64,000 nucleotides of DNA from Eubacteriales bacterium (GCA_045539335.1 JAZQFD010000007.1:18986-82985), one strand, 5' to 3'. Shown: positions 15,183 to 55,184, numbered from the stretch's first letter. The notes: generated by a model not told the origin, from the letters alone. A program made the numbers and translations.

Positions 15183-15544
15183 TTATCTCTGGGTTTTGTA
15201 AAGAGTGCAAAAAGAACGCCGAAGCCAATGGCGGCGGCAATGCCGCCGGCGGTGGTCTGCAACCCTCCGGTAAAGGCGCCTAAAAGCCCTCGGGCATTCA
15301 CCGCCTGCTCCACTCCCTTGGCCAGTGAATAGCCAAAGCCGGTTAAAGGAACGGTGGCACCTGCCTGTCCGAAATCCACGATTTTCTCATAAATTCCCAA
15401 AGCGGTCAGGGCAACGCCGCCGGCGACGTAAAGGACCACAATCCGTGCCGGCGTCCAGTTGGTTTTGTCTATGAGGATCTGCGCCAGTGCGCAAAGAACG
15501 CCACCGGTTAAAAAGACCTGCAGATAGATCATCCAAGAACTCAT
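15179..15544 (-). CDS. spoVAE: Stage V sporulation protein AE (SpoVAEB-type)
   Basis: I use the internal start MSSWMIYLQVFLTGGVLC (121 aa). Its ATG overlaps the spoVAD stop (ATGA). The PLTGFGYSLAKGV motif is present. Confidence 0.88.
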   Translation of the reverse strand: MSSWMIYLQVFLTGGVLCALAQILIDKTNWTPARIVVLYVAGGVALTALGIYEKIVDFGQAGATVPLTGFGYSLAKGVEQAVNARGLLGAFTGGLQTTAGGIAAAIGFGVLFALFTKPRDK

Positions 15545-16557
15545 TGGGCTTCTCCTTTCAAATGGATCAGATGGGCAATGGCAGGAATGGATTCTCCCTG
15601 CATCACCGAAAGAGGGCTCATCAGAGCACCGGTGGAAAGAAAGAGTACATTCTTCCATTCTCTCTTTTGGAGCTTGGGCAGTACATAGGCGGTCAGCACC
15701 GCAGCGCTGCAGCCGCAGCCGCTACCGCCGGCGTGCATATCCTGGGTGTCCCGATGGTAGATCAAAAGCCCGCAATCCTGATAATGGCTTTGAAGATCGA
15801 CCCCCTCTTTTTTGGCAAGTTCGATCACCACCTCTGCACCGATGGAGCCCAGATCCCCCGTGAGGATCATGTCATAATCCTGAGGGGTGGTTTTGGTTTC
15901 CTTTAAATAATCCAAAATCAGCCGCAAGGCCGCCGGTGCCATGGCACCGCCCATGTTGTTCACATCGGTGACCCCCATATCCCAAATGGCCCCAAAGGCG
16001 CCTCCCTCTAAGCGAATGGGAGAGGGCTCAACCGAGAGAATCAAGGCGCCGGAGGCGGTAACGGTGTGTTGGGCAGAGGGTGGGCGTTGACCGCCGTATT
16101 CCAAGGGAAAGCGATATTGCCGCTCGGCAGTGCCGAAATGGGAGGAGGTCAGCGCCCCTGCCAGATGGGTCAGCCCCGCCTCTATGGAAAGGGCGCCGAT
16201 CAGGGTAGAGAGTGCCATGGTGGAGCAAGCGCCGTAGAGTCCGATATAGGGCACTCCGCAATCTCGAAAGCTATAGGCGGAGCTGATGCATTGGTTGAGA
16301 AGATCTCCTGCTCCCACCAGTTCCAAGTCCTCTTTTTTCACGCCCGCCCGCCGTAGCGCATGATCCAGTGCCACCTGTTGAAGATGCACCTCGGCCTGCT
16401 CCATGGTTTTTTTGCCGCAGTAAAGGTCTTGCTCAATGCTGTCAAAGAGCCCGCCTAAAGGGCCTTCATGCTCTTTGGCACCTGCCACATTGCCCCAGCC
16501 GGCAATATAAATCTTTTGATCAAAGGAAAAACTGTATGTTCCGTGTCGTGTTGCCAA
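15541..16557 (-). CDS. spoVAD: Stage V sporulation protein AD (thiolase-like)
   Basis: 338 aa with a TTG start and a GGGGAG RBS. It shows YIAGWGNVAGAKEHEGPLG..FD and GGSGCGCSA. Confidence 0.9.
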   Translation of the reverse strand: MATRHGTYSFSFDQKIYIAGWGNVAGAKEHEGPLGGLFDSIEQDLYCGKKTMEQAEVHLQQVALDHALRRAGVKKEDLELVGAGDLLNQCISSAYSFRDCGVPYIGLYGACSTMALSTLIGALSIEAGLTHLAGALTSSHFGTAERQYRFPLEYGGQRPPSAQHTVTASGALILSVEPSPIRLEGGAFGAIWDMGVTDVNNMGGAMAPAALRLILDYLKETKTTPQDYDMILTGDLGSIGAEVVIELAKKEGVDLQSHYQDCGLLIYHRDTQDMHAGGSGCGCSAAVLTAYVLPKLQKREWKNVLFLSTGALMSPLSVMQGESIPAIAHLIHLKGEAQ

Positions 16558-47770: not shown

Positions 47771-48901
47771 ATGCTTGAGAAATTCAAATTGAAGAATACC
47801 GTTTGTTGTGAACTGCTGTTTGTGGTGCCGCCCGTTGGAATGCTCCTTGTTGGCGTGGCGGCGGTGGTGTTGACCCAAGCCCATGTGGTAGGCGTTGGGG
47901 TGTTGCTGGCTTCCATGATCGGAACTTTAGTTTATATTGTGCGCTCCCTGTCGCTGATCTTCAGTGCGGATATTACCTTGAGCTGTTTAAGGAATTGGCA
48001 AAAGGATCGGCTGTGGTACCGCACCTCTGCCAATGGGACAACCCGCAAAGAGGCTGAAGAGATCATAAGTGCCCGCCTTTTGAAATGGGGAAATCGGCAA
48101 GACCCCATGGGTGAGGCTCTTTTGATGAGGCATAAAAAACGCCGTCCCTTCACCGGCTTTTATAAGGTGGTGGATCAAGGGGTACTGCTTTATAGCGTAG
48201 AGCGGCTGACCGAATCGGTTTACCAAAAAATCATGGCGGAAGCCAATGGGGCGGCAAAGGCCATAAAAGAAAAGGGAGAGGATACCGCCTCTGCGGTGGC
48301 GGTGATCCTTTTGGCAGATCGGGTGGAGCGTGCCGTGTTGAATCAGGTGCGTAAGACCCCCGATTATGAAGATTGGATCGTTTTGCCTTGTGTTTTTGAT
48401 GCCGCTTCTCAGCAATATCATCTGGACGGGTTGTATGACTATAGCTTGTTTGGAAAACCGGTGAAAAACGATGCCTTGGATTTACTGGTTAAAACCGTCT
48501 TTGGCGGAGCCCTTCCTTTAGAGGAAAATAATCAGATGGATTATTCCAATCCCATTGCCCAGTGGCAGGAGAAGACCATGGCGGATCTGATTTTGGATTT
48601 TAAGGAAGAAAACCAAAAAGAAAAGAAGTTCATTGAAGAGGCCGCCCAACAATTAAAAGATGGTCAGCTTCTTTACCATGAGGAAAACTTCTACTTAAAG
48701 CACGCTGACCGCTTGGCGGTGTATACAGCCTTTTTGGATGAAGAGGAGCCCCAAAAGGTCTATGTGATGACCGATCTGAATTGGAGCTATCCCAAGCCCC
48801 TGCCCATCTCCAAAAAGGATCAGGAGATCCTCAAAGAGATGGTTCGTGCCCACTATTCCGCCCAACAAATTGAGGTGGAATTTGATGATAACGATCAGTA
48901 A
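47771..48901 (+). CDS. Hypothetical membrane-anchored protein
   Basis: 376 aa with two N-terminal TM helices, host-like GC and a GAGGAA RBS. I do not recognise the family. Confidence 0.6.
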   Translation: MLEKFKLKNTVCCELLFVVPPVGMLLVGVAAVVLTQAHVVGVGVLLASMIGTLVYIVRSLSLIFSADITLSCLRNWQKDRLWYRTSANGTTRKEAEEIISARLLKWGNRQDPMGEALLMRHKKRRPFTGFYKVVDQGVLLYSVERLTESVYQKIMAEANGAAKAIKEKGEDTASAVAVILLADRVERAVLNQVRKTPDYEDWIVLPCVFDAASQQYHLDGLYDYSLFGKPVKNDALDLLVKTVFGGALPLEENNQMDYSNPIAQWQEKTMADLILDFKEENQKEKKFIEEAAQQLKDGQLLYHEENFYLKHADRLAVYTAFLDEEEPQKVYVMTDLNWSYPKPLPISKKDQEILKEMVRAHYSAQQIEVEFDDNDQ

Positions 48902-48966
48902 AACGATCAAAAAAACAGCTTCATTAATCGGCAGTGTGGTATAATGAAATAAAGGAGTGTGATATT

Positions 48967-49779
48967 ATGAAAAAACTATGCGTTGTTTTATCGCTCATGT
49001 TGATTATCCTTTCCCTATCCGCATGTAATGCTATACCACAAACCAACGATTCAGACAATTCCACCGCTCTGGATGGGATCAATGATGACACAAAGAACAG
49101 TTATGAATATATAATAGAAGATGGAACCGCCGCTCTGGATGGGATCAATGATGACACAAAGAACAGTTATGAATATACAATAGAAGATGGAACCGCGACA
49201 ATTATCTCCCATCAATATAATCCCGAGGAAAATGAAATTGTAATTCCGGAAAAAATCGAAGGGAGTATTGTTACCGCTATTGAGAAAAATGCCTTTTATC
49301 AGCACAAGAACACCATTTCGATTGTTTTACCATCCGGTTTAGAAAGAATAGACGGGGGCCCTTTTTATAGGTGCTATTCGTTAAAAACCAGTTTTGTTCC
49401 CCAAAATGTCAAAAGCATAAACGGAAATCCATATTTCCGTTGTTCCTCCTTGGAAACTATAACTGTGGATACGAAAAACCCTTATTTTTGCGATGATAAT
49501 GGCATCTTGTTTAACAAGGACAAAACGACGTTGATCGCATATCCCGAGGGAAAAACAGATGAAAGCTATACCATTCCTAAGACGGTAACAAGAATCGAGG
49601 GAGGCTCCTTTGGCTACCACACCGGAATTAAAAAACTGTATATTTTTTCAAATGTTACGGAGCTTCCCGACTACAATATGTTTGTTTATCCTCAAGATAT
49701 CAAAATATATGTTGAGGCAGGCTCTGCTGCGGAAGAATATGTAAAAAAGTTTGATTTGAATTTTGAAATCATCAGTTGA
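48967..49779 (+). CDS. Leucine-rich-repeat (BspA/LRR_5-type) surface lipoprotein
   Basis: The start is MKKLCVVLSLMLIILSLSACNA. Repeats of the type I..IEKNAFY.C..L..I.LP..L..I occur, and the RBS is AAAGGAG. Confidence 0.8.
   Translation: MKKLCVVLSLMLIILSLSACNAIPQTNDSDNSTALDGINDDTKNSYEYIIEDGTAALDGINDDTKNSYEYTIEDGTATIISHQYNPEENEIVIPEKIEGSIVTAIEKNAFYQHKNTISIVLPSGLERIDGGPFYRCYSLKTSFVPQNVKSINGNPYFRCSSLETITVDTKNPYFCDDNGILFNKDKTTLIAYPEGKTDESYTIPKTVTRIEGGSFGYHTGIKKLYIFSNVTELPDYNMFVYPQDIKIYVEAGSAAEEYVKKFDLNFEIIS
49064..49195 (+). repeat. 66-bp tandem duplication (x2, 65/66 identical) inside the LRR lipoprotein gene
   Basis: It encodes ALDGINDDTKNSYEY(I/T)IEDGTA twice. Confidence 0.9.
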
Positions 49780-49822
49780 ACAACAAGCAAAAAGGCTTGA
49801 CCGGACGGTCAAGCCTTTTTCA

Positions 49823-49945
49823 TTAGAACAAAGTCGTTATCCAATAAATAATCCCATACACCACACTGGCCACGGTGCCGTAGGCAATGACGGGTCCGGC
49901 GATGGTGAAAATTTTGGCACCAAGACCAAGAATGAAGCCCTCTGC
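49823..49945 (-). pseudogene. Detached copy of the last 39 codons plus stop of spoVAC (copy A)
   Basis: It encodes EGFILGLGAKIFTIAGPVIAYGTVASVVYGIIYWITTLF*, identical to the live gene. There are 16 nucleotide differences, all at third codon positions. Confidence 0.9.
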
Positions 49946-49981
49946 TTGTGGTCAAGTAGGACCCATTAGTTTTGGAAAACA

Positions 49982-50010
49982 TTTACATTAAAACAGCGAG
50001 GTGGTATAAT
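49982..50010 (+). promoter_or_regulatory. Cassette promoter (module A)
   Basis: TTTACA (49982), 17 nt, then TATAAT (50005), 21 nt upstream of the ATG at 50032. Confidence 0.55.
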
Positions 50011-50031
50011 AAAAATAAAGGAGTTAATGCT

Positions 50032-50418
50032 ATGAAGAAGCTTATCTGTGTTTTTTTATTTATGTGCTTACTTTTTGCAGGTTGCCAAAATCAAAACTCA
50101 AATGAGAATTGGGGCAGTTTCACCGCCGAAAAAGCATATAGCTATGATCAAAAATACTATGCCATCCAAAACTCAAAAGAAATGGACGATATTTCTTTTA
50201 TAGAAGTTGTAATATATAACGGCAAAAATGAAATGGTATACACTTTCACACCTGCCCGTGCCTCTGATTTTTGGGGGATATGTTGGGAAAAAGACACCTA
50301 TAATATTTGGATTCAATCAGCAGATATTGGTATAATTTGTTACTCTTATGATAATGAAATGTGGACTGAGAACAATACTGCGGTCCGTCCTGACTATATT
50401 ATTTCAAAATACGATTAA
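50032..50418 (+). CDS. Small lipoprotein, unknown function
   Basis: 128 aa starting MKKLICVFLFMCLLFAGCQN (lipobox), AT-rich. Confidence 0.7.
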   Translation: MKKLICVFLFMCLLFAGCQNQNSNENWGSFTAEKAYSYDQKYYAIQNSKEMDDISFIEVVIYNGKNEMVYTFTPARASDFWGICWEKDTYNIWIQSADIGIICYSYDNEMWTENNTAVRPDYIISKYD

Positions 50419-50462
50419 ATCATCTTATTAAAAGGCTTGACCGGACGGTCAAGCCTTTTACA

Positions 50463-50585
50463 TTAGAATAATGTTGTTATCCAATAAATAATCCCATAAA
50501 CCACGCTGGCCACGGTGCCGTAGGCAATGACCGGCCCGGCGATGGTAAAAATCTTGGCACCAAGGCCGAGGATGAAGCCCTCTGC
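50463..50585 (-). pseudogene. Detached copy of the spoVAC 3' end (copy B)
   Basis: It encodes the same 39-aa peptide plus stop. All differences from the live gene are synonymous. Confidence 0.9.
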
Positions 50586-50622
50586 TGCTGTCAATATAGG
50601 ACACAGTGATTTCACAAAAATA

Positions 50623-50651
50623 TTTACATTAAAACGGCGGTGCGGTATAAT
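50623..50651 (+). promoter_or_regulatory. Cassette promoter (module B)
   Basis: TTTACA, 17 nt, then TATAAT, 21 nt upstream of the ATG at 50673. Confidence 0.55.
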
Positions 50652-50672
50652 GAAACAAAAGGTGGTGGAAAA

Positions 50673-51992
50673 ATGTTTGTCTTTGCTTTTGTTTTGTATG
50701 CAGTCGCAATTAGTTTTATTGCAAACAGCTATGCAATAGTTCAGCAAGAACTGCAAAGCTTGTTTGTTTTAATACCTGTTTTTCTTTTTGTAAATATTTT
50801 TGCAGGTTGTTTATTATTAAAAACAAAAAGAAAATCTCTTAAAATTTGCTGTCACGGTACAGTACTGTTAGTTTCATTTTACATATCTATAATTGTATCT
50901 GCTATTTGTCAAATTGTTATTGCAATAAAGACGATTCCAAACGATTATATGTTATTTGTTTGGAGTCTGGTATTTTGCATTTGTGTTAATTTCGTTATCT
51001 TTTGGAACGGAATTATTTGTGTATATCTGACATCAACACAATTAGGCATTAAAATAAGGGTTATTGGTATCGTTTGCGGTATGATACCTATAGCAAACTT
51101 AGTTACTTTATTTTTTATCATCAAAACCACTATTACAGAATGTTTGGTTGAATCAAAAAAAGAAAAAATCAACAAACAACGGCATGACCTAAAAATTTGC
51201 GCCACAAAATATCCAATCCTTTTCGTTCATGGTGTCTTTTTCCGTGATACAAAATACTTCAATTACTGGGGAAGAATACCGGGTGAATTAGAAACAAACG
51301 GTGCAACAATATTTTATGGCAATCACCACTCCGCTTCATCGGTGGCTGACAGTGCCGCTGAATTAAAATCACGCATCACAGAAATACTTTCTGAAACAGG
51401 GGCGAAAAAACTAAATATAATCGCTCATTCTAAAGGTGGTCTTGATTGCCGTTATGCAATTTCAAAACTCGGCATCGCCGATAAGGTTGCTTCTCTAACT
51501 ACAATAAACACTCCGCACAACGGTTGCTTGTTTGCCGATTATCTGCTCAGCAAAATACCGTCATCCACAAAAAACAAGGTGGCAGACACCTATAATTCAA
51601 CACTTAAAAAATTCGGTGAGCCAAATCCTGATTTTCTTGCGGCGGTCAATGATTTAACCGATCACTACTGTAAACAACTGAATGTTGAATTAGCAACACC
51701 ACCAGAGATTTACTGTCAAAGCGTCGGTTCGGTACTAACAAAAGCTACAAGCGGTAAATTTCCTCTAAATCTTTCATACCATTTGGTTAAATATTTTAGC
51801 GGCGAAAATGACGGCCTTGTAGGTGAAACATCGTTTAAGTGGGGAGAAAATTATATTCTTTTAAGGCCAACTGAAAAACGAGGCATATCTCATGGTGATA
51901 TGATTGATCTTAACAGACAAAATTTCAAAAGTTTTGATGTAAGAGAATTTTATGTAAATTTAGTAAGCGATCTAAAAAATAAAGGGTTTTAA
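50673..51992 (+). CDS. Membrane-anchored alpha/beta-hydrolase (lipase/esterase class with AHSKGG nucleophile elbow)
   Basis: I use the start MFVFAFVLYAV (439 aa). There are about 5 N-terminal TM helices. PILFVHG and IIAHSKGGLD follow. Confidence 0.75.
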   Translation: MFVFAFVLYAVAISFIANSYAIVQQELQSLFVLIPVFLFVNIFAGCLLLKTKRKSLKICCHGTVLLVSFYISIIVSAICQIVIAIKTIPNDYMLFVWSLVFCICVNFVIFWNGIICVYLTSTQLGIKIRVIGIVCGMIPIANLVTLFFIIKTTITECLVESKKEKINKQRHDLKICATKYPILFVHGVFFRDTKYFNYWGRIPGELETNGATIFYGNHHSASSVADSAAELKSRITEILSETGAKKLNIIAHSKGGLDCRYAISKLGIADKVASLTTINTPHNGCLFADYLLSKIPSSTKNKVADTYNSTLKKFGEPNPDFLAAVNDLTDHYCKQLNVELATPPEIYCQSVGSVLTKATSGKFPLNLSYHLVKYFSGENDGLVGETSFKWGENYILLRPTEKRGISHGDMIDLNRQNFKSFDVREFYVNLVSDLKNKGF

Positions 51993-52029
51993 CGCAAAAG
52001 GCTTGACCGATTTGGTCAAGCCTTTTTCA

Positions 52030-52152
52030 TTAGAACAAAGTCGTTATCCAATAAATAATCCCATACACCACACTCGCTACGGTGCCATAGGCGATGACCG
52101 GCCCGGCGATGGTGAAGATCTTGGCGCAAAGACCAAGAATGAAGCCCTCTGC
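52030..52152 (-). pseudogene. Detached copy of the spoVAC 3' end (copy C)
   Basis: It encodes the same peptide except for one replacement (GLGAK to GLCAK). Confidence 0.9.
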
Positions 52153-52189
52153 TTGTGGTTAAGTAGGACCCATTAGTTTTTGAAAAATA

Positions 52190-52218
52190 TTCACATTAAA
52201 TCAGCGGTGCGGTACAAT
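52190..52218 (+). promoter_or_regulatory. Cassette promoter (module C, weaker match)
   Basis: TTCACA, 17 nt, then TACAAT. Confidence 0.4.
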
Positions 52219-52238
52219 GAAATAAAGAGGTGATACTA

Positions 52239-52358
52239 TTGAAAAAATATATTCTTTGTTTCTTTACTGTTTATTTAATATTTTTATCCGGTTGTTCTTT
52301 TTACAGTTCTTTCAGATCAATGATAAAGAGCGTAGCGCCGCGGGTGGTGGGCTCATAG
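52239..52358 (+). pseudogene. Truncated cassette ORF: lipoprotein signal peptide only
   Basis: TTG-start MKKYILCFFTVYLIFLSGCS. The frame then runs into the antisense of the convergent GC-rich gene and stops after 39 codons. Confidence 0.55.
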
Positions 52359-53962
52359 CTGACGGTGGCGATGATATAAAGCTTTCCGTTGCTTTCATGG
52401 GCCACCGGGTAGTGGCAGGCGGGCGCATTTTGGGTGGCAGTGGGTTGGCCGTCGAAAAGGATCTGCTTACGGGTGAATTTTTCGCCCCGGGGCTCGGTGA
52501 AATAGATGGCCAGGCAGGAGCGGTCGGGGCGGTCAATATTGGCCACCAGATACTTTCTGCCGTCTGCAAGATTTCCTGCATACATTTTGGAGTTGACATA
52601 GGGAATATCGTGGCTGTAGGCCTCGCTCCAGCTTTCGCCCAGATCCTCGGAAAGATAGAGGAGGGGAACCTTTCGCCGATCGTTGCGGTTGAACATATAC
52701 AGCCGATCTCCCGCCTGCATTACCGAGATCTCGGGATGGCGCAGATTGGTGCCGTCGGGCAGGTCCCCGTTTTCAGCGATCTTTACCAATCGCCATTCAG
52801 CGTCGATCTTTCCGCTGTCGGAGATCAATACGGCAGGGGTATTGGGGAAGCCGTCCAATTCGCCCACCCGGCCCGGAAGCATCAGCTTTCCGTTGGGAAG
52901 AGCCACCACATTGGTGTTCAGCTTGAAGGGAATGGGGCGGGACCATAAAAACTCAAATTTCCCTGTATCATTATTCAGGCGGAAGAGATCCAGAGAATGG
53001 ATATGGTCGGGGGCAACCATTTGGTTGACCAGCAGATAGAGGGTATCATCGCAGATGCCGTAGACCGGCGGGCAATAGATGATCTTTTTGGCTTGGTCTT
53101 CGCAGAGCAGCTCCAGCCGACTCCAGGTCTTTCCGCCGTCATAGGAGCGCTTGCCGTAGATGGGGGTATAACCCTGCAGTTCGAATTTATGGCAATGGTA
53201 CCAGGAGGCATATAAAACACCGTGGTATTCAATGATCGCCGCCTCATGGAGAAAGCGGAATTGGCGGTTCGGCTCCTGCACAGAGATCTTCTCGAAAGGA
53301 AGATCAAGTTCTTGCAGTGTGGGGCCCATCATAGAAAGGAAGGGGTATTTTTTGGCCGAGAGGATATCGTTGAATTCATAGAAATCATGAAGATGAATTC
53401 CCGAGTATTGGCTCTTGAAGGCGGTGGGAGAAAGCCCCACTATCTTAGTGAAGACCTCGGTGAAATAGCTGACATTATTGAAGCCATAGGTAATGGCGAT
53501 ATCGGCGATCTTTTCATCGGTGGTGAGGAGCCTTTTGATGGCGGCCTCCAATCTCTTCTGGGTGCGGAAGGTATTGACCGAAACACCGTATACGCTCTTG
53601 AACAGATGGCACATATAGTAATAGCTGATATTGATCTCTTTGGCGATCTCTTCAATGCTGATGTCTTCGGTCAGATGAGCGTTGATATAGGTGACCACCC
53701 GCTGGATCAGGTCGTTTTCAAGGCTTCGGGTGTTGGTTCGCCCTGCCTTCACAATATCAATGATCGCGGTCAGGATCTCTGCGTCGCAGCCTTCGGTTTC
53801 GTTGAATTCGGCGATCTTGGCATCCAGCTGGGGCTGATAAATGTTGCTTCGCTCCAGGCAGTCCAATTTGAAGTATTCAAAAACCGCCATAATGATATCG
53901 CTTTTTTCAGTATTCTCGATGAGGTATTCGGCGATAACTCGGTTGCAGCTTTTGTTGTTCAT
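52301..53962 (-). CDS. AraC-type HTH regulator fused to a BNR/sialidase-like beta-propeller
   Basis: 553 aa. The AraC HTH lies at about residues 95-190 (SIEEIAKEINISYYYMCHLFKSVYG...GFNNVSYFTEVFTKIVGLSP). Asp-box motifs SYDGGKTWS and SEDLGESWS follow. GC is host-like (57% spot count). Confidence 0.8.
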   Translation of the reverse strand: MNNKSCNRVIAEYLIENTEKSDIIMAVFEYFKLDCLERSNIYQPQLDAKIAEFNETEGCDAEILTAIIDIVKAGRTNTRSLENDLIQRVVTYINAHLTEDISIEEIAKEINISYYYMCHLFKSVYGVSVNTFRTQKRLEAAIKRLLTTDEKIADIAITYGFNNVSYFTEVFTKIVGLSPTAFKSQYSGIHLHDFYEFNDILSAKKYPFLSMMGPTLQELDLPFEKISVQEPNRQFRFLHEAAIIEYHGVLYASWYHCHKFELQGYTPIYGKRSYDGGKTWSRLELLCEDQAKKIIYCPPVYGICDDTLYLLVNQMVAPDHIHSLDLFRLNNDTGKFEFLWSRPIPFKLNTNVVALPNGKLMLPGRVGELDGFPNTPAVLISDSGKIDAEWRLVKIAENGDLPDGTNLRHPEISVMQAGDRLYMFNRNDRRKVPLLYLSEDLGESWSEAYSHDIPYVNSKMYAGNLADGRKYLVANIDRPDRSCLAIYFTEPRGEKFTRKQILFDGQPTATQNAPACHYPVAHESNGKLYIIATVSYEPTTRGATLFIIDLKEL

Positions 53963-54116
53963 AATAAAAACCCTCCCATCTGCTTTTATTGTATCAAAGG
54001 GGAGGGCTCTTTTCTATAACAAATTTGTCTTGTTGATGATCCCGACAGACTGCAGAAAACGATGGCTTTATTCTTTTAAATAATAAAGAATATTGAATGA
54101 CTAAGAAATAAGAAAT

Positions 54117-54551
54117 TTAAAACAAGGTTGTGATCCAATAAATAATCCCATACACCACGCTGGCCACGGTACCATAGGCGATGACGGGGCCGGCGATGGT
54201 GAAGATCTTGGCGCCCAGGCCGAGGATGAAGCCCTCTTGCTTAAATTCCATGGCGGCGCTGGTGATGGAGTTGGAAAAGCCGGTGATAGGGATGATGGAG
54301 CCGCCTCCGGCGAATTTACCCAATTTATCATAGACGCCAATAGCGGTGAGCAGTGCTCCCAAAAAGACCATGCAGATGGGCAGCCACAGCCGCACCTCCT
54401 CCCGATGCAACCAGTTGCCCAAAAGATCGGCAATGGCCTGTCCGATGCAGCAGATGATGCCGCCCACCCAAAAGGCATTGATGCAATCCTTCAGAATGGG
54501 AGAGTTGGGGGTCTTTTTTTGGAGATAGGCATTATATTCTTTTTTATCCAT
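54117..54551 (-). CDS. spoVAC: Stage V sporulation protein AC
   Basis: I prefer the start MDKKEYNAYLQKKTP, which has a GAGGTGA RBS 6 nt upstream (144 aa). It has 4 TM helices and the PITGFSNSI motif. Confidence 0.88.
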   Translation of the reverse strand: MDKKEYNAYLQKKTPNSPILKDCINAFWVGGIICCIGQAIADLLGNWLHREEVRLWLPICMVFLGALLTAIGVYDKLGKFAGGGSIIPITGFSNSITSAAMEFKQEGFILGLGAKIFTIAGPVIAYGTVASVVYGIIYWITTLF

Positions 54552-54568
54552 AACATTCACCTCAAAAA

Positions 54569-54597
54569 AAGTATGTCCTCATGCAATAAAAAAATGC
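54569..54597 (-). promoter_or_regulatory. Candidate forespore (sigma-G/F-like) promoter for spoVAC
   Basis: The minus strand reads GCATT, 17 nt, then CATACTT. From memory the sigma-G consensus is about TGAATA-N17/18-CATACTA. Confidence 0.3.
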
Positions 54598-54620
54598 AGT
54601 CATCAAGACTGCATTTTTTA
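54587..54620 (-). terminator. Rho-independent terminator after the ABC ATPase gene
   Basis: The minus strand reads ATGCAGTCttgatGACTGCAT followed by TTTTTT. Confidence 0.7.
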
Positions 54621-55184
54621 TGTTTCACTGCTTAAGGGAAGAATCTGCGCCTGCAGAAGCTCCGCTTCTTCTTTCAGGTGGGTTACCATCAAAATGGCGC
54701 CCGTCCATTCCTTTAAAATCAGGTCGGCGGTGAGGCGCTTGGTATCATCGTCCAGTCCGTTGAAGGGCTCATCTAAAATCAAAAGGGAGGAGGGGGTGCA
54801 AAGGGCTCTTGCAATGGCGACTCGGCGGCGCATTCCGCCGGAAAGTTCCTCCGGATACTGGTGTAAATTTACACCAAGACCCAACGAAGTCAGGAGTTTC
54901 GTTGCTTTTTCTTCGTTTTTGGTAGCAAGAGCGGTATTTTGCAAAACCGTCTTATGAGAGAGCAGGCGATCCTCCTGAAACACCGCCGCAATGGGGAGAG
55001 AGGCTTGTAATACTGCTCCTTTTTGGGGCTTTTCCAAGCCCATGATCAGGCGCAAAACGGTGGTTTTTCCACAACCGGAGGGACCCATCAGCGCAAGGTG
55101 CTGACCCTCCTTTATGGTTAGGGAAAAATCCTTTAGTACAACGGTATCTCCATAGGAGAAAGAAACACGGTCCAGTTGAATCAT
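54618..55184 (-). CDS. ABC transporter ATP-binding protein (NitT/TauT-type, short form)
   Basis: 188 aa with Walker A GPSGCGKTT, LSGGMRRR and LILDEP. Confidence 0.88.
   Translation of the reverse strand: MIQLDRVSFSYGDTVVLKDFSLTIKEGQHLALMGPSGCGKTTVLRLIMGLEKPQKGAVLQASLPIAAVFQEDRLLSHKTVLQNTALATKNEEKATKLLTSLGLGVNLHQYPEELSGGMRRRVAIARALCTPSSLLILDEPFNGLDDDTKRLTADLILKEWTGAILMVTHLKEEAELLQAQILPLSSET

Follow-up and report, generated by a model that had tools for sequence, protein, structure and literature searches.

Judged from sequence comparisons, the region beside the sporulation gene spoVAC in a 64,000-nt stretch of DNA from a Eubacteriales bacterium (GCA_045539335.1 JAZQFD010000007.1:18986-82985; hereafter the window, with coordinates counted from its first letter) is probably an array of recombinase-less mini-cassettes that were integrated repeatedly and site-specifically at the boundary between spoVAC codons 108 and 109. 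Three modules of ~240 bp and one half module part unrelated, AT-rich open reading frames (ORFs) there. Each full module is composed of a bidirectional terminator hairpin, the last 39 spoVAC codons, a ~26-nt motif abutting codon 109 and a sigma-A-type promoter. Besides this anatomy, the interpretation draws on a breakpoint that is fixed across species, on selection acting on the copied gene ends, on the conservation of the junction motif (termed the P arm), on the presence of the same arm beside serine recombinase genes inserted at the same nucleotide, and on the horizontal spread of whole units.

Modules and cargo in the window

From the distal end of the array to the live gene, the parts are:

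48921-48966, plus strand: distal half module, promoter-like -35/-10 and ribosome-binding site (RBS) only, without junction motif and without spoVAC fragment
48967-49779, plus strand: cargo ORF1, lipoprotein with BspA-type LRR_5 repeats (Pfam)
49790-49819, both strands: terminator hairpin 1, -21.4/-22.0 kcal/mol
49823-49943, minus strand: spoVAC 3'-end copy 1, codons 109-147 and stop; translation equal to the live C-terminus
49944-49969, minus strand: junction motif (P arm) 1, in spoVAC sense CTAATGGGTCCTACTTGACCACAAGCA|GAGGG
49982-50010, plus strand: cassette promoter 1, TTTACA-17-TATAAT with TG, then RBS
50032-50418, plus strand: cargo ORF2, 128-aa lipoprotein, no Pfam family
50430-50459, both strands: terminator hairpin 2, -21.9 kcal/mol
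50463-50583, minus strand: spoVAC 3'-end copy 2, from the repeat family and codon comparison
50584-50609, minus strand: junction motif 2, in spoVAC sense CACTGTGTCCTATATTGACAGCAGCA|GAGGG
50623-50651, plus strand: cassette promoter 2, TTTACA-17-TATAAT
50673-51992, plus strand: cargo ORF3, membrane-anchored alpha/beta-hydrolase or lipase
51996-52025, both strands: terminator hairpin 3, -20.6 kcal/mol
52030-52150, minus strand: spoVAC 3'-end copy 3, one non-synonymous change, G to C
52151-52176, minus strand: junction motif 3, in spoVAC sense CTAATGGGTCCTACTTAACCACAAGCA|GAGGG
52190-52218, plus strand: cassette promoter 3, TTCACA-17-TACAAT
52241-52300, plus strand: cargo ORF4 remnant, lipoprotein signal peptide cut right after the lipobox by the end of the next gene
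52301-53962, minus strand: AraC-HTH/BNR_2 gene of host-like GC content, in the slot adjoining spoVAC, in place of the rest of ORF4 and a hairpin
54117-54560, minus strand: live spoVAC, 147 aa, PF03862 (E 7e-42)

Much of this layout had been described in an initial annotation made from the sequence alone, and most of that description holds. The three modules with one layout are borne out by alignment and by a 213-nt repeat family (49807-50019, 50447-50659 and 52014-52226) with an ungapped identity of 76-83% in the repeat finder. The half module that had been placed at 48921-48966 starts 20 nt past the stop codon of a flanking 376-aa ORF and can be aligned to the full modules from the -35 region on. 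The hairpins, likewise recovered, fold at -20.6 to -22 kcal/mol on each strand (z -6 to -9) and combine a stable stem-loop, a T run and compensatory pairing, as predicted intrinsic terminators do; variants of the stem keep their pairing by compensatory change (GGCTTGCC/GGCAAGCC, TGCTTGACC/GGTCAAGCA, GGCTCGCC/GGCGAGCC). No such hairpin follows the live spoVAC. The three module promoters are the three best sigma-70-like sites in 48700-54700, and the cargo is indeed unrelated from slot to slot, with LRR_5 repeats in ORF1, no family for ORF2 and an alpha/beta-hydrolase or lipase in ORF3. The slots are AT-rich, as had been remarked, at 27-42% GC against 45-60% in the flanks. Agreement extends to the enzymes: among the 55 window ORFs that reach 100 aa, all compared with Pfam, there is no recombinase, integrase, transposase or relaxase, and tblastn of the window for serine or tyrosine integrase homologues was negative. 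Rfam finds no known RNA family within the modules.

A fixed breakpoint and selection on the copied gene ends

The three fragments and the live gene end form a 121-nt repeat family of four copies that are 87-90% identical (49823-49943, 50463-50583, 52030-52150 and 54117-54237). Colinearity with the live spoVAC end, claimed by the initial annotation, is kept in a formal MAFFT alignment; its figure of 123 bp was right as to the 39 codons and the stop and wrong in length, the exact block being 39 codons, the stop and 1 nt. The block starts at codon 109 in every window copy, and likeness to the live gene ends exactly at ...GAAGCCCTCT, which is codon 109 on the minus strand. The four copies differ at 10-16 of 120 positions, and the differing codons are synonymous (12/12, 16/16 and 14/14) with a single non-synonymous change, that in copy 3. 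Since the differences are nearly all synonymous, each copy diverged while in use as a working gene end. By this codon pattern, the window copies are not decaying pseudogene scraps.

The same breakpoint is met far beyond the window. A search with the hairpin as query (AAGGCTTGACC-N3-6-GGTCAAGCCTT) against one genome per species returned at least 120 loci, nearly all in metagenome-assembled genomes of Oscillospirales (Oscillospiraceae, Acutalibacteraceae, Faecousia and others). Among the matches listed, the hairpin follows a full spoVAC in 67 loci; 53 loci contain C-terminal fragments, and every one of these more than 90 fragments begins at codon 107-109. The 39 codons and stop are intact in 70 of 93 fragments, and the ratio of non-synonymous to synonymous change (pN/pS) is 0.22 for fragments and 0.20 for live ends across these loci. 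In the live genes of the array set, the 3' ends stay at an identity of ~0.70 however far the 5' parts have diverged, which fits live ends drawn from a shared mobile pool; in canonical spoVAC-spoVAD operons, 3'-end identity tracks 5' divergence. The window spoVAC itself has no clear mosaic break at codon 109 against its closest relatives.

A second breakpoint, ~33 nt into the fragment, is common to three species (L024 ~4798, L059 ~5376 and L099 ~3836, where L numbers denote individual loci or contigs; ..AAGATGTT|CTCCTGTT..) and suggests another element or a recombination hot spot within the spoVAC fragment.

A conserved motif at the junction

When the fragments are lined up on codon 109, a motif appears directly upstream of it, AA....TG.GTCCTA..TTGACA..AGCA|GAGGG, where the bar precedes codon 109. 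It is found in 77 of 93 fragments, even where the sequence farther upstream is unrelated, and live genes have their ordinary codons 100-108 at this position. In the window it occurs only at 49944-49969, 50584-50609 and 52151-52176. The initial annotation had passed over it, counting as a mere 36-bp spacer a segment whose first ~26 nt are this cross-species conserved motif. In 43 of the 93 junctions, the standard promoter stands at a near-constant distance from the arm. On alignment, the three window junctions and the junctions that follow recombinase genes (see below) have ~26 nt in common and part company farther upstream, and the live gene is different over the whole stretch. The ~26-nt motif and the first bases of codon 109 together make up the likely recombination site, and the corresponding attachment site in the live gene would be centred on the codon 108/109 boundary, at about 54212-54262.

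Discrete units shared between species

Two or more fragments are present in 23 loci, with a maximum of 5-6 within 8 kb among the matches listed. Between successive gene ends, the 53 fragment-bearing loci contain 68 units of 463-4230 bp, none of which holds a recombinase gene, and in 44 of the 68 there is a single ORF of 90 aa or more, which runs counter to spoVAC. The cargo includes regulators, DUF6442 proteins, M28 peptidases, a serine dehydratase, YitT, HAD and GDSL hydrolases and many proteins without a family; as PADLOC matches are few and scattered, it does not consist mainly of known defence genes.

Individual cassettes recur. That of the window lipase (ORF3) is found again in L052 (84% nucleotide identity), L062 and L029, and that of ORF2 has a homologue in L004 that is 77% identical over the whole unit. 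Same-cargo units from different species have equal lengths (651/651/653, 955/955 and 1471/1472/1472 nt) and are 81-96% identical, whereas the same pairs of genomes have only 51-62% identity in the 5' part of live spoVAC, which indicates that the units are discrete and horizontally mobile. Identical small units also recur in other species at other array positions with other neighbours. The idea of a multi-slot array with exchangeable cassettes between constant modules, advanced on the window alone, is supported by identical cassettes in different genomes and different company, and by the occurrence of the same modules around other cargo in more than 50 further species.

The arrays are lineage-restricted. 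Of 80 metagenome loci retrieved with the SpoVAC N-terminus as query, almost all are fragment-free operons of the canonical type, spoVAC-spoVAD-spoVAEb. Looking up four window proteins by exact sequence gave no match, and when metagenomes were scanned with SpoVAC residues 1-107, the best match reached 75% identity and came from a contig of 1.7 kb.

The modules of several species also harbour GC-rich palindromic inserts that resemble repetitive extragenic palindromes (REP-like; CGGGCGGATG..CATCCGCCCCTAC.., GTAGGGGCG..) between the fragment stop codon and the hairpin (L004 3457, L010 1629, L024 2291, L002 456, L034 6163 and others). These inserts may represent a small mobile repeat which has spread into the modules. 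Hairpin matches in the IMG/VR contigs L124-L144 were set aside: they belong to one phage family that has the same 11-bp stem (AAGGCTTGACC...GGTCAAGCCTT) and no spoVAC, and the terminator there is probably unrelated or convergent. The spoVAC genes of viral contigs L262 and L263 are in unrelated contexts.

A serine recombinase triplet at the same site

In 13 viral or metagenomic contigs (L121-L123, L145, L146 and L174-L181), three tandem genes for large serine recombinases precede the junction motif by 10-400 bp. The initial annotation had raised the question of a consistently linked recombinase gene; such linkage exists in these 13 contigs, but not in the window. Three of the contigs came from scanning IMG/VR with the motif and two from a search with the third recombinase gene (LSR3); each of the five has three tandem ORFs of ~550 aa that stop 10-400 bp short of the motif and a spoVAC fragment. 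The triplet ORFs tested, those of L122, have Resolvase, Recombinase and Zn_ribbon_recom domains. LSR3 homologues at 66-79% identity in ENA contigs of up to 49 kb (L174-L181) share the same junction, beyond which lie ordinary recombinase-less cassettes, each with its own fragment. One such downstream cassette has an arm of ~45 nt that is near-identical to the arm following the L121 recombinase genes. More distant LSR3 homologues (32-37% identity) have no adjoining spoVAC fragment. In L122, spoVAD follows directly on the displaced fragment, which shows that a native operon was the target.

The triplet sits at the extremity of a mobile element of at least 41 kb. Going leftward from it, a DUF6870 gene comes first, followed by Tn916-like regulatory genes (sigma70_r4, HTH_16) and then by HTH_3 and an AbiE toxin-antitoxin pair. 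A ParM-like gene, DUF3854, a RecD2-like helicase and YqaJ are next, and AAA_5/CobT_C-like, two UmuC-like, YolD, Hfq, HPr and repressor-like HTH genes are last. Neither a relaxase nor a type IV secretion system was seen among the precomputed Pfam marks of the 41 kb walked, which stop short of the left end.

Elements with near-identical backbones (L265-L268 versus L174-L181 and L269-L271) differ in their integration genes, which are a tyrosine integrase in some and the serine recombinase triplet in others. The sister elements with the tyrosine integrase were reached through ParM-like homologues, and common to both kinds are the ParM-like gene (its protein ~90% identical) and the RecD2-like, YqaJ, DUF3854, sigma and HTH_16 genes. 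As the same backbone is found with either type of integrase, integration modules have been swapped. Many triplet-bearing contigs are ~5.3-5.9 kb long, which suggests that assemblies break at repeats on either side of a block made up of DUF6870 and the triplet. Four triplet contigs tested have no terminal overlap that would indicate circles.

Proposed integration mechanism

Read in the direction of spoVAC, a cassette consists of codons 109-147 and the stop, the bidirectional terminator, an antisense cargo gene, the cargo's own promoter and a P arm of ~26-45 nt. Integration would join the cassette's gene end to the live 5' part and push the previous end outward behind the P arm. Because the cassette copy becomes the live end, spoVAC would stay intact, and repeated integration would build a ladder of spoVAC-end copies in which the newest cassette is presumably nearest the gene. 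The enzyme would most likely be the serine recombinase triplet of the element of at least 41 kb, which uses the same site and P arm and would act on the cassettes in trans. The crossover point may be the invariant GA of codon 109 or lie close to it; crossover at GA has reportedly been described for Tn5397/TndX and Tn4451/TnpX. The resulting attL would resemble attB and attR would resemble attP. Since both partners have spoVAC sequence as their right half-site, every integration should regenerate both site types, and cassettes could thereby be added, removed and shuffled by the same reaction.

Several observations weigh against this mechanism. No recombinase gene lies within the 64-kb window or the 120 8-kb genome loci examined, so that action in trans is an assumption, and the 41-kb walk along the recombinase-bearing element did not reach a left junction with live spoVAC. 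No pseudo-palindrome that would mark the crossover centre rises above background around codon 109. Neither circular cassettes nor empty/occupied polymorphism within a species were seen in collections from which the window species is absent. Fragment decay has no increasing trend with array rank across loci, and how a new gene enters between the standard promoter and terminator is left unexplained by the model. In the window, the unit adjoining spoVAC (52151-54116) is without a hairpin and a gene of host-like GC content replaces most of ORF4, and the most distal unit ends at its promoter, without a P arm. Given the missing hairpin and the cut of ORF4 after the lipobox, later rearrangement of the spoVAC-proximal unit is likely. 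The L052 array similarly ends at a promoter, with a degenerate hairpin and a GC-rich palindromic insert beyond; from these arm-less distal ends, older junctions evidently decay. No signs of current cassette activity were seen in the window.

Homologous recombination could in principle account for much of the pattern, if one ancient partial duplication made the module and RecA-dependent crossing-over or transformation has since resized and exchanged the arrays, the ~240-bp modules being portable homology arms and no site-specific enzyme acting on the cassettes. At 70-90% identity over ~240 bp the modules are similar enough for exchange, the arrays have no linked recombinase, a fixed breakpoint might equally descend from a single duplication, and fragments swapped into the live position would likewise be filtered by selection. 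However, the ~26-nt motif persists where the sequence next to it in the cassettes is unrelated, it is common to the ends of recombinase elements at the same nucleotide, a native spoVAC-spoVAD operon included, and unit lengths are exact between distant hosts. Homology explains neither the need for the motif nor entry into naive operons. As the sole explanation it is unlikely; as a contributor to the shuffling and resizing of arrays it probably has a part. Quite improbable is the proposal that the units are remnants of large recombinase elements that underwent internal deletion and were never mobile alone. Large elements do insert at the site, on the gene-proximal side of arrays, and deletions and truncations are visible (ORF4 of the window, truncated fragments elsewhere), but the fixed-distance standard promoter is missing from the right ends of the recombinase elements, and independent deletions would not produce the identical small units that recur across species, positions and neighbours.

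Arrays of single-gene cassettes are a hallmark of integrons, and within the motif lies an imperfect inverted repeat (TGNGTC-N6-7-GACNNCA) in which one base may be bulged, so that the motif might fold single-stranded like attC and be recombined by an IntI-like or Xer-like tyrosine recombinase encoded elsewhere. This is very improbable in the light of the motif's folding energy of -2 to -5 kcal/mol, no better than that of shuffled sequences (z -0.5 to +0.4), and of an outer pair that is broken in two of four variants, with inconsistent covariation. Moreover, tblastn with two tyrosine integrases found no match in the window or the 120 loci, the enzymes adjoining the motif are serine recombinases, and each cassette has its own promoter. 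Finally, repeats of ~240 bp can mislead short-read assemblers, and many related contigs (of ~5.6 kb) break near modules. An assembly artefact through mis-joined reads, which the initial annotation had named as what could undo its claim, nevertheless has a vanishingly small probability: the copies differ by 10-13% in a codon-aware pattern, and the same architecture is present in more than 50 independent assemblies from different projects.

Site-specific integration at codon 108/109 may be part of something more general, namely a serine-recombinase counterpart of the integron, a platform for cassette capture and expression set in the spoVAC coding sequence of gut Oscillospirales. This extension is tentative and, on balance, doubtful. 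Under it, one reaction could insert, delete and shuffle self-expressed single-gene cassettes without a directionality factor, and the three paralogues may each serve one kind of half-site: gene-side, cassette-side and shared. The promoter/terminator module would give any captured ORF immediate expression and insulate spoVAC.

Comparison with known systems

The proposed process is of a known kind, the site-specific accretion of non-autonomous elements. By analogy of arrangement, its closest working counterpart is the composite island of the staphylococcal cassette chromosome (SCC). Such islands include ccr-less pseudo-SCC elements (10.1101/336396, PMC3900703). SCC islands rely on large serine recombinases, the class of enzyme encoded beside the junction motif in the 13 related contigs. 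In both systems, a single site near the 3' end of a conserved gene is used and the gene is left intact, target repeats bound each unit (121-nt repeats in the spoVAC array), and units pile up in tandem, many of them without recombinase genes and, in the spoVAC array, presumably dependent on others. The target is, however, spoVAC codon 109 rather than rlmH (orfX) of Staphylococcaceae, and the duplication comprises 120 nt of coding sequence and a terminator rather than ~15-20 nt. The units are 0.5-1.5 kb long with one gene and a standardised promoter and terminator, whereas SCC forms multi-kb islands; here, the recombinases form a triplet whose element measures at least 41 kb, and anaerobic Oscillospirales of the gut are the hosts.

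With integrons, the spoVAC arrays share ordered arrays of mostly single-gene cassettes of unrelated and largely unknown function, horizontal sharing of cassettes between species, one conserved short site per cassette and insertion beside a fixed platform. They have no IntI tyrosine integrase, no site that folds like attC and no shared promoter, for which reasons they are not integrons: each cassette has its own promoter and terminator, whereas integron cassettes are promoterless and served by a common platform promoter. Transcription of the spoVAC-array cassettes runs towards the end of spoVAC, away from the platform, and the platform is the coding sequence of a sporulation gene that is rebuilt at each insertion. 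The spoVAC fragment, which the initial annotation had put in place of attC, is instead the displaced 3' end of the target gene, as at islands that target tRNA genes or rlmH. The region is a member of neither the SCC nor the integron family.

Streptococcal integrative and conjugative elements (ICEs) have serine-integrase triplets at their ends and disrupt mutT, traG or hsdM (PMC4701971). Like them, the recombinase-bearing elements related to the spoVAC arrays have three tandem genes at an extremity, beside an attachment site inside a protein-coding gene. Unlike in those ICEs, the target is not disrupted here but repaired by an element-borne 3' end, a conjugation module was not seen in the 41 kb examined, and satellite mini-cassettes have not been described for the ICEs.

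Islands at the 3' ends of tRNA, tmRNA or protein genes grow by tandem accretion of non-autonomous elements such as cis-mobilizable elements (CIMEs). There, too, a carried copy of the 3' end restores the gene and the displaced end stays as a direct repeat, arrays arise by reuse of the regenerated site, and integrase-less elements are mobilised in trans; the differences are tyrosine integrases, larger elements and the lack of a standard expression module. In the Firmicutes, serine-recombinase elements are also established in sporulation genes, namely skin with SpoIVCA in sigK and SPbeta with SprA in spsM. Such skin-type intervening elements interrupt their gene, which becomes whole again once they have been excised in the mother cell. 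The spoVA genes, by contrast, are expressed in the forespore, which is the germ line, and a skin-type excision during sporulation would therefore lose the element. As the cassette carries a replacement end, spoVAC is never split.

In the literature searched, no paper connects spoVAC with cassettes, integrons, hotspots or serine recombinases. The remark in the initial annotation that it knew of no described system with this layout holds to that extent and fails in that a functional analogue, SCC with its ccr-less elements, exists, which makes the system less unprecedented than it had seemed. Features that are previously undescribed are the target, the replacement of 120 nt of coding sequence, the promoter/terminator module, the integron-like scale and the likely dependence on a triplet.

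If the proposed mechanism is true, gut Clostridia, which are abundant and for the most part uncultured, would have a cassette system by which single genes are stockpiled and spread between families, with lipoproteins, lipases, regulators, small membrane proteins and many unknowns among the cargo. Its class of enzyme would differ from that of integrons, and the problem of expression would be solved by a promoter and terminator on each cassette. It would also constitute a third way for mobile DNA to reside in a sporulation gene, neither disrupting it nor restoring it by excision; carrying a spare gene end suits a gene that is expressed in the germ-line forespore. In practical terms, the ~26-nt motif, the spoVAC codon 100-118 site and the recombinase triplet together are a candidate tool for site-specific integration in Clostridia, and the junction motif is a simple probe for finding cassette cargo in metagenomes.

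Neighbouring genes and minor features

In the window, spoVAC stands alone. The genes spoVAD (PF07451) and spoVAEb (PF03862) lie at 15197-16557 on the minus strand, 37.5 kb away, in the orientation and order of the canonical operon, so that the operon has been split in the window lineage. The DNA between spoVAC and spoVAD holds housekeeping genes (metH, MTHFR, asnA, beta-CASP RNase, GH3 and others). Just upstream of spoVAC, at 54582-54679 on the minus strand, Rfam gives an L20 leader match that stays below threshold (32 bits, where the gathering score is 58.7) and is probably due to chance. ORF1 contains a 66-bp tandem duplication (49061-49192, 97% identical) that repeats a 22-residue peptide after the lipoprotein signal. 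The AraC-HTH/BNR_2 fusion next to spoVAC, with its sialidase-like fold, has homologues beside spoVAC or inside arrays in 22 other loci, in either orientation, and may be a frequent cargo or an old neighbour.

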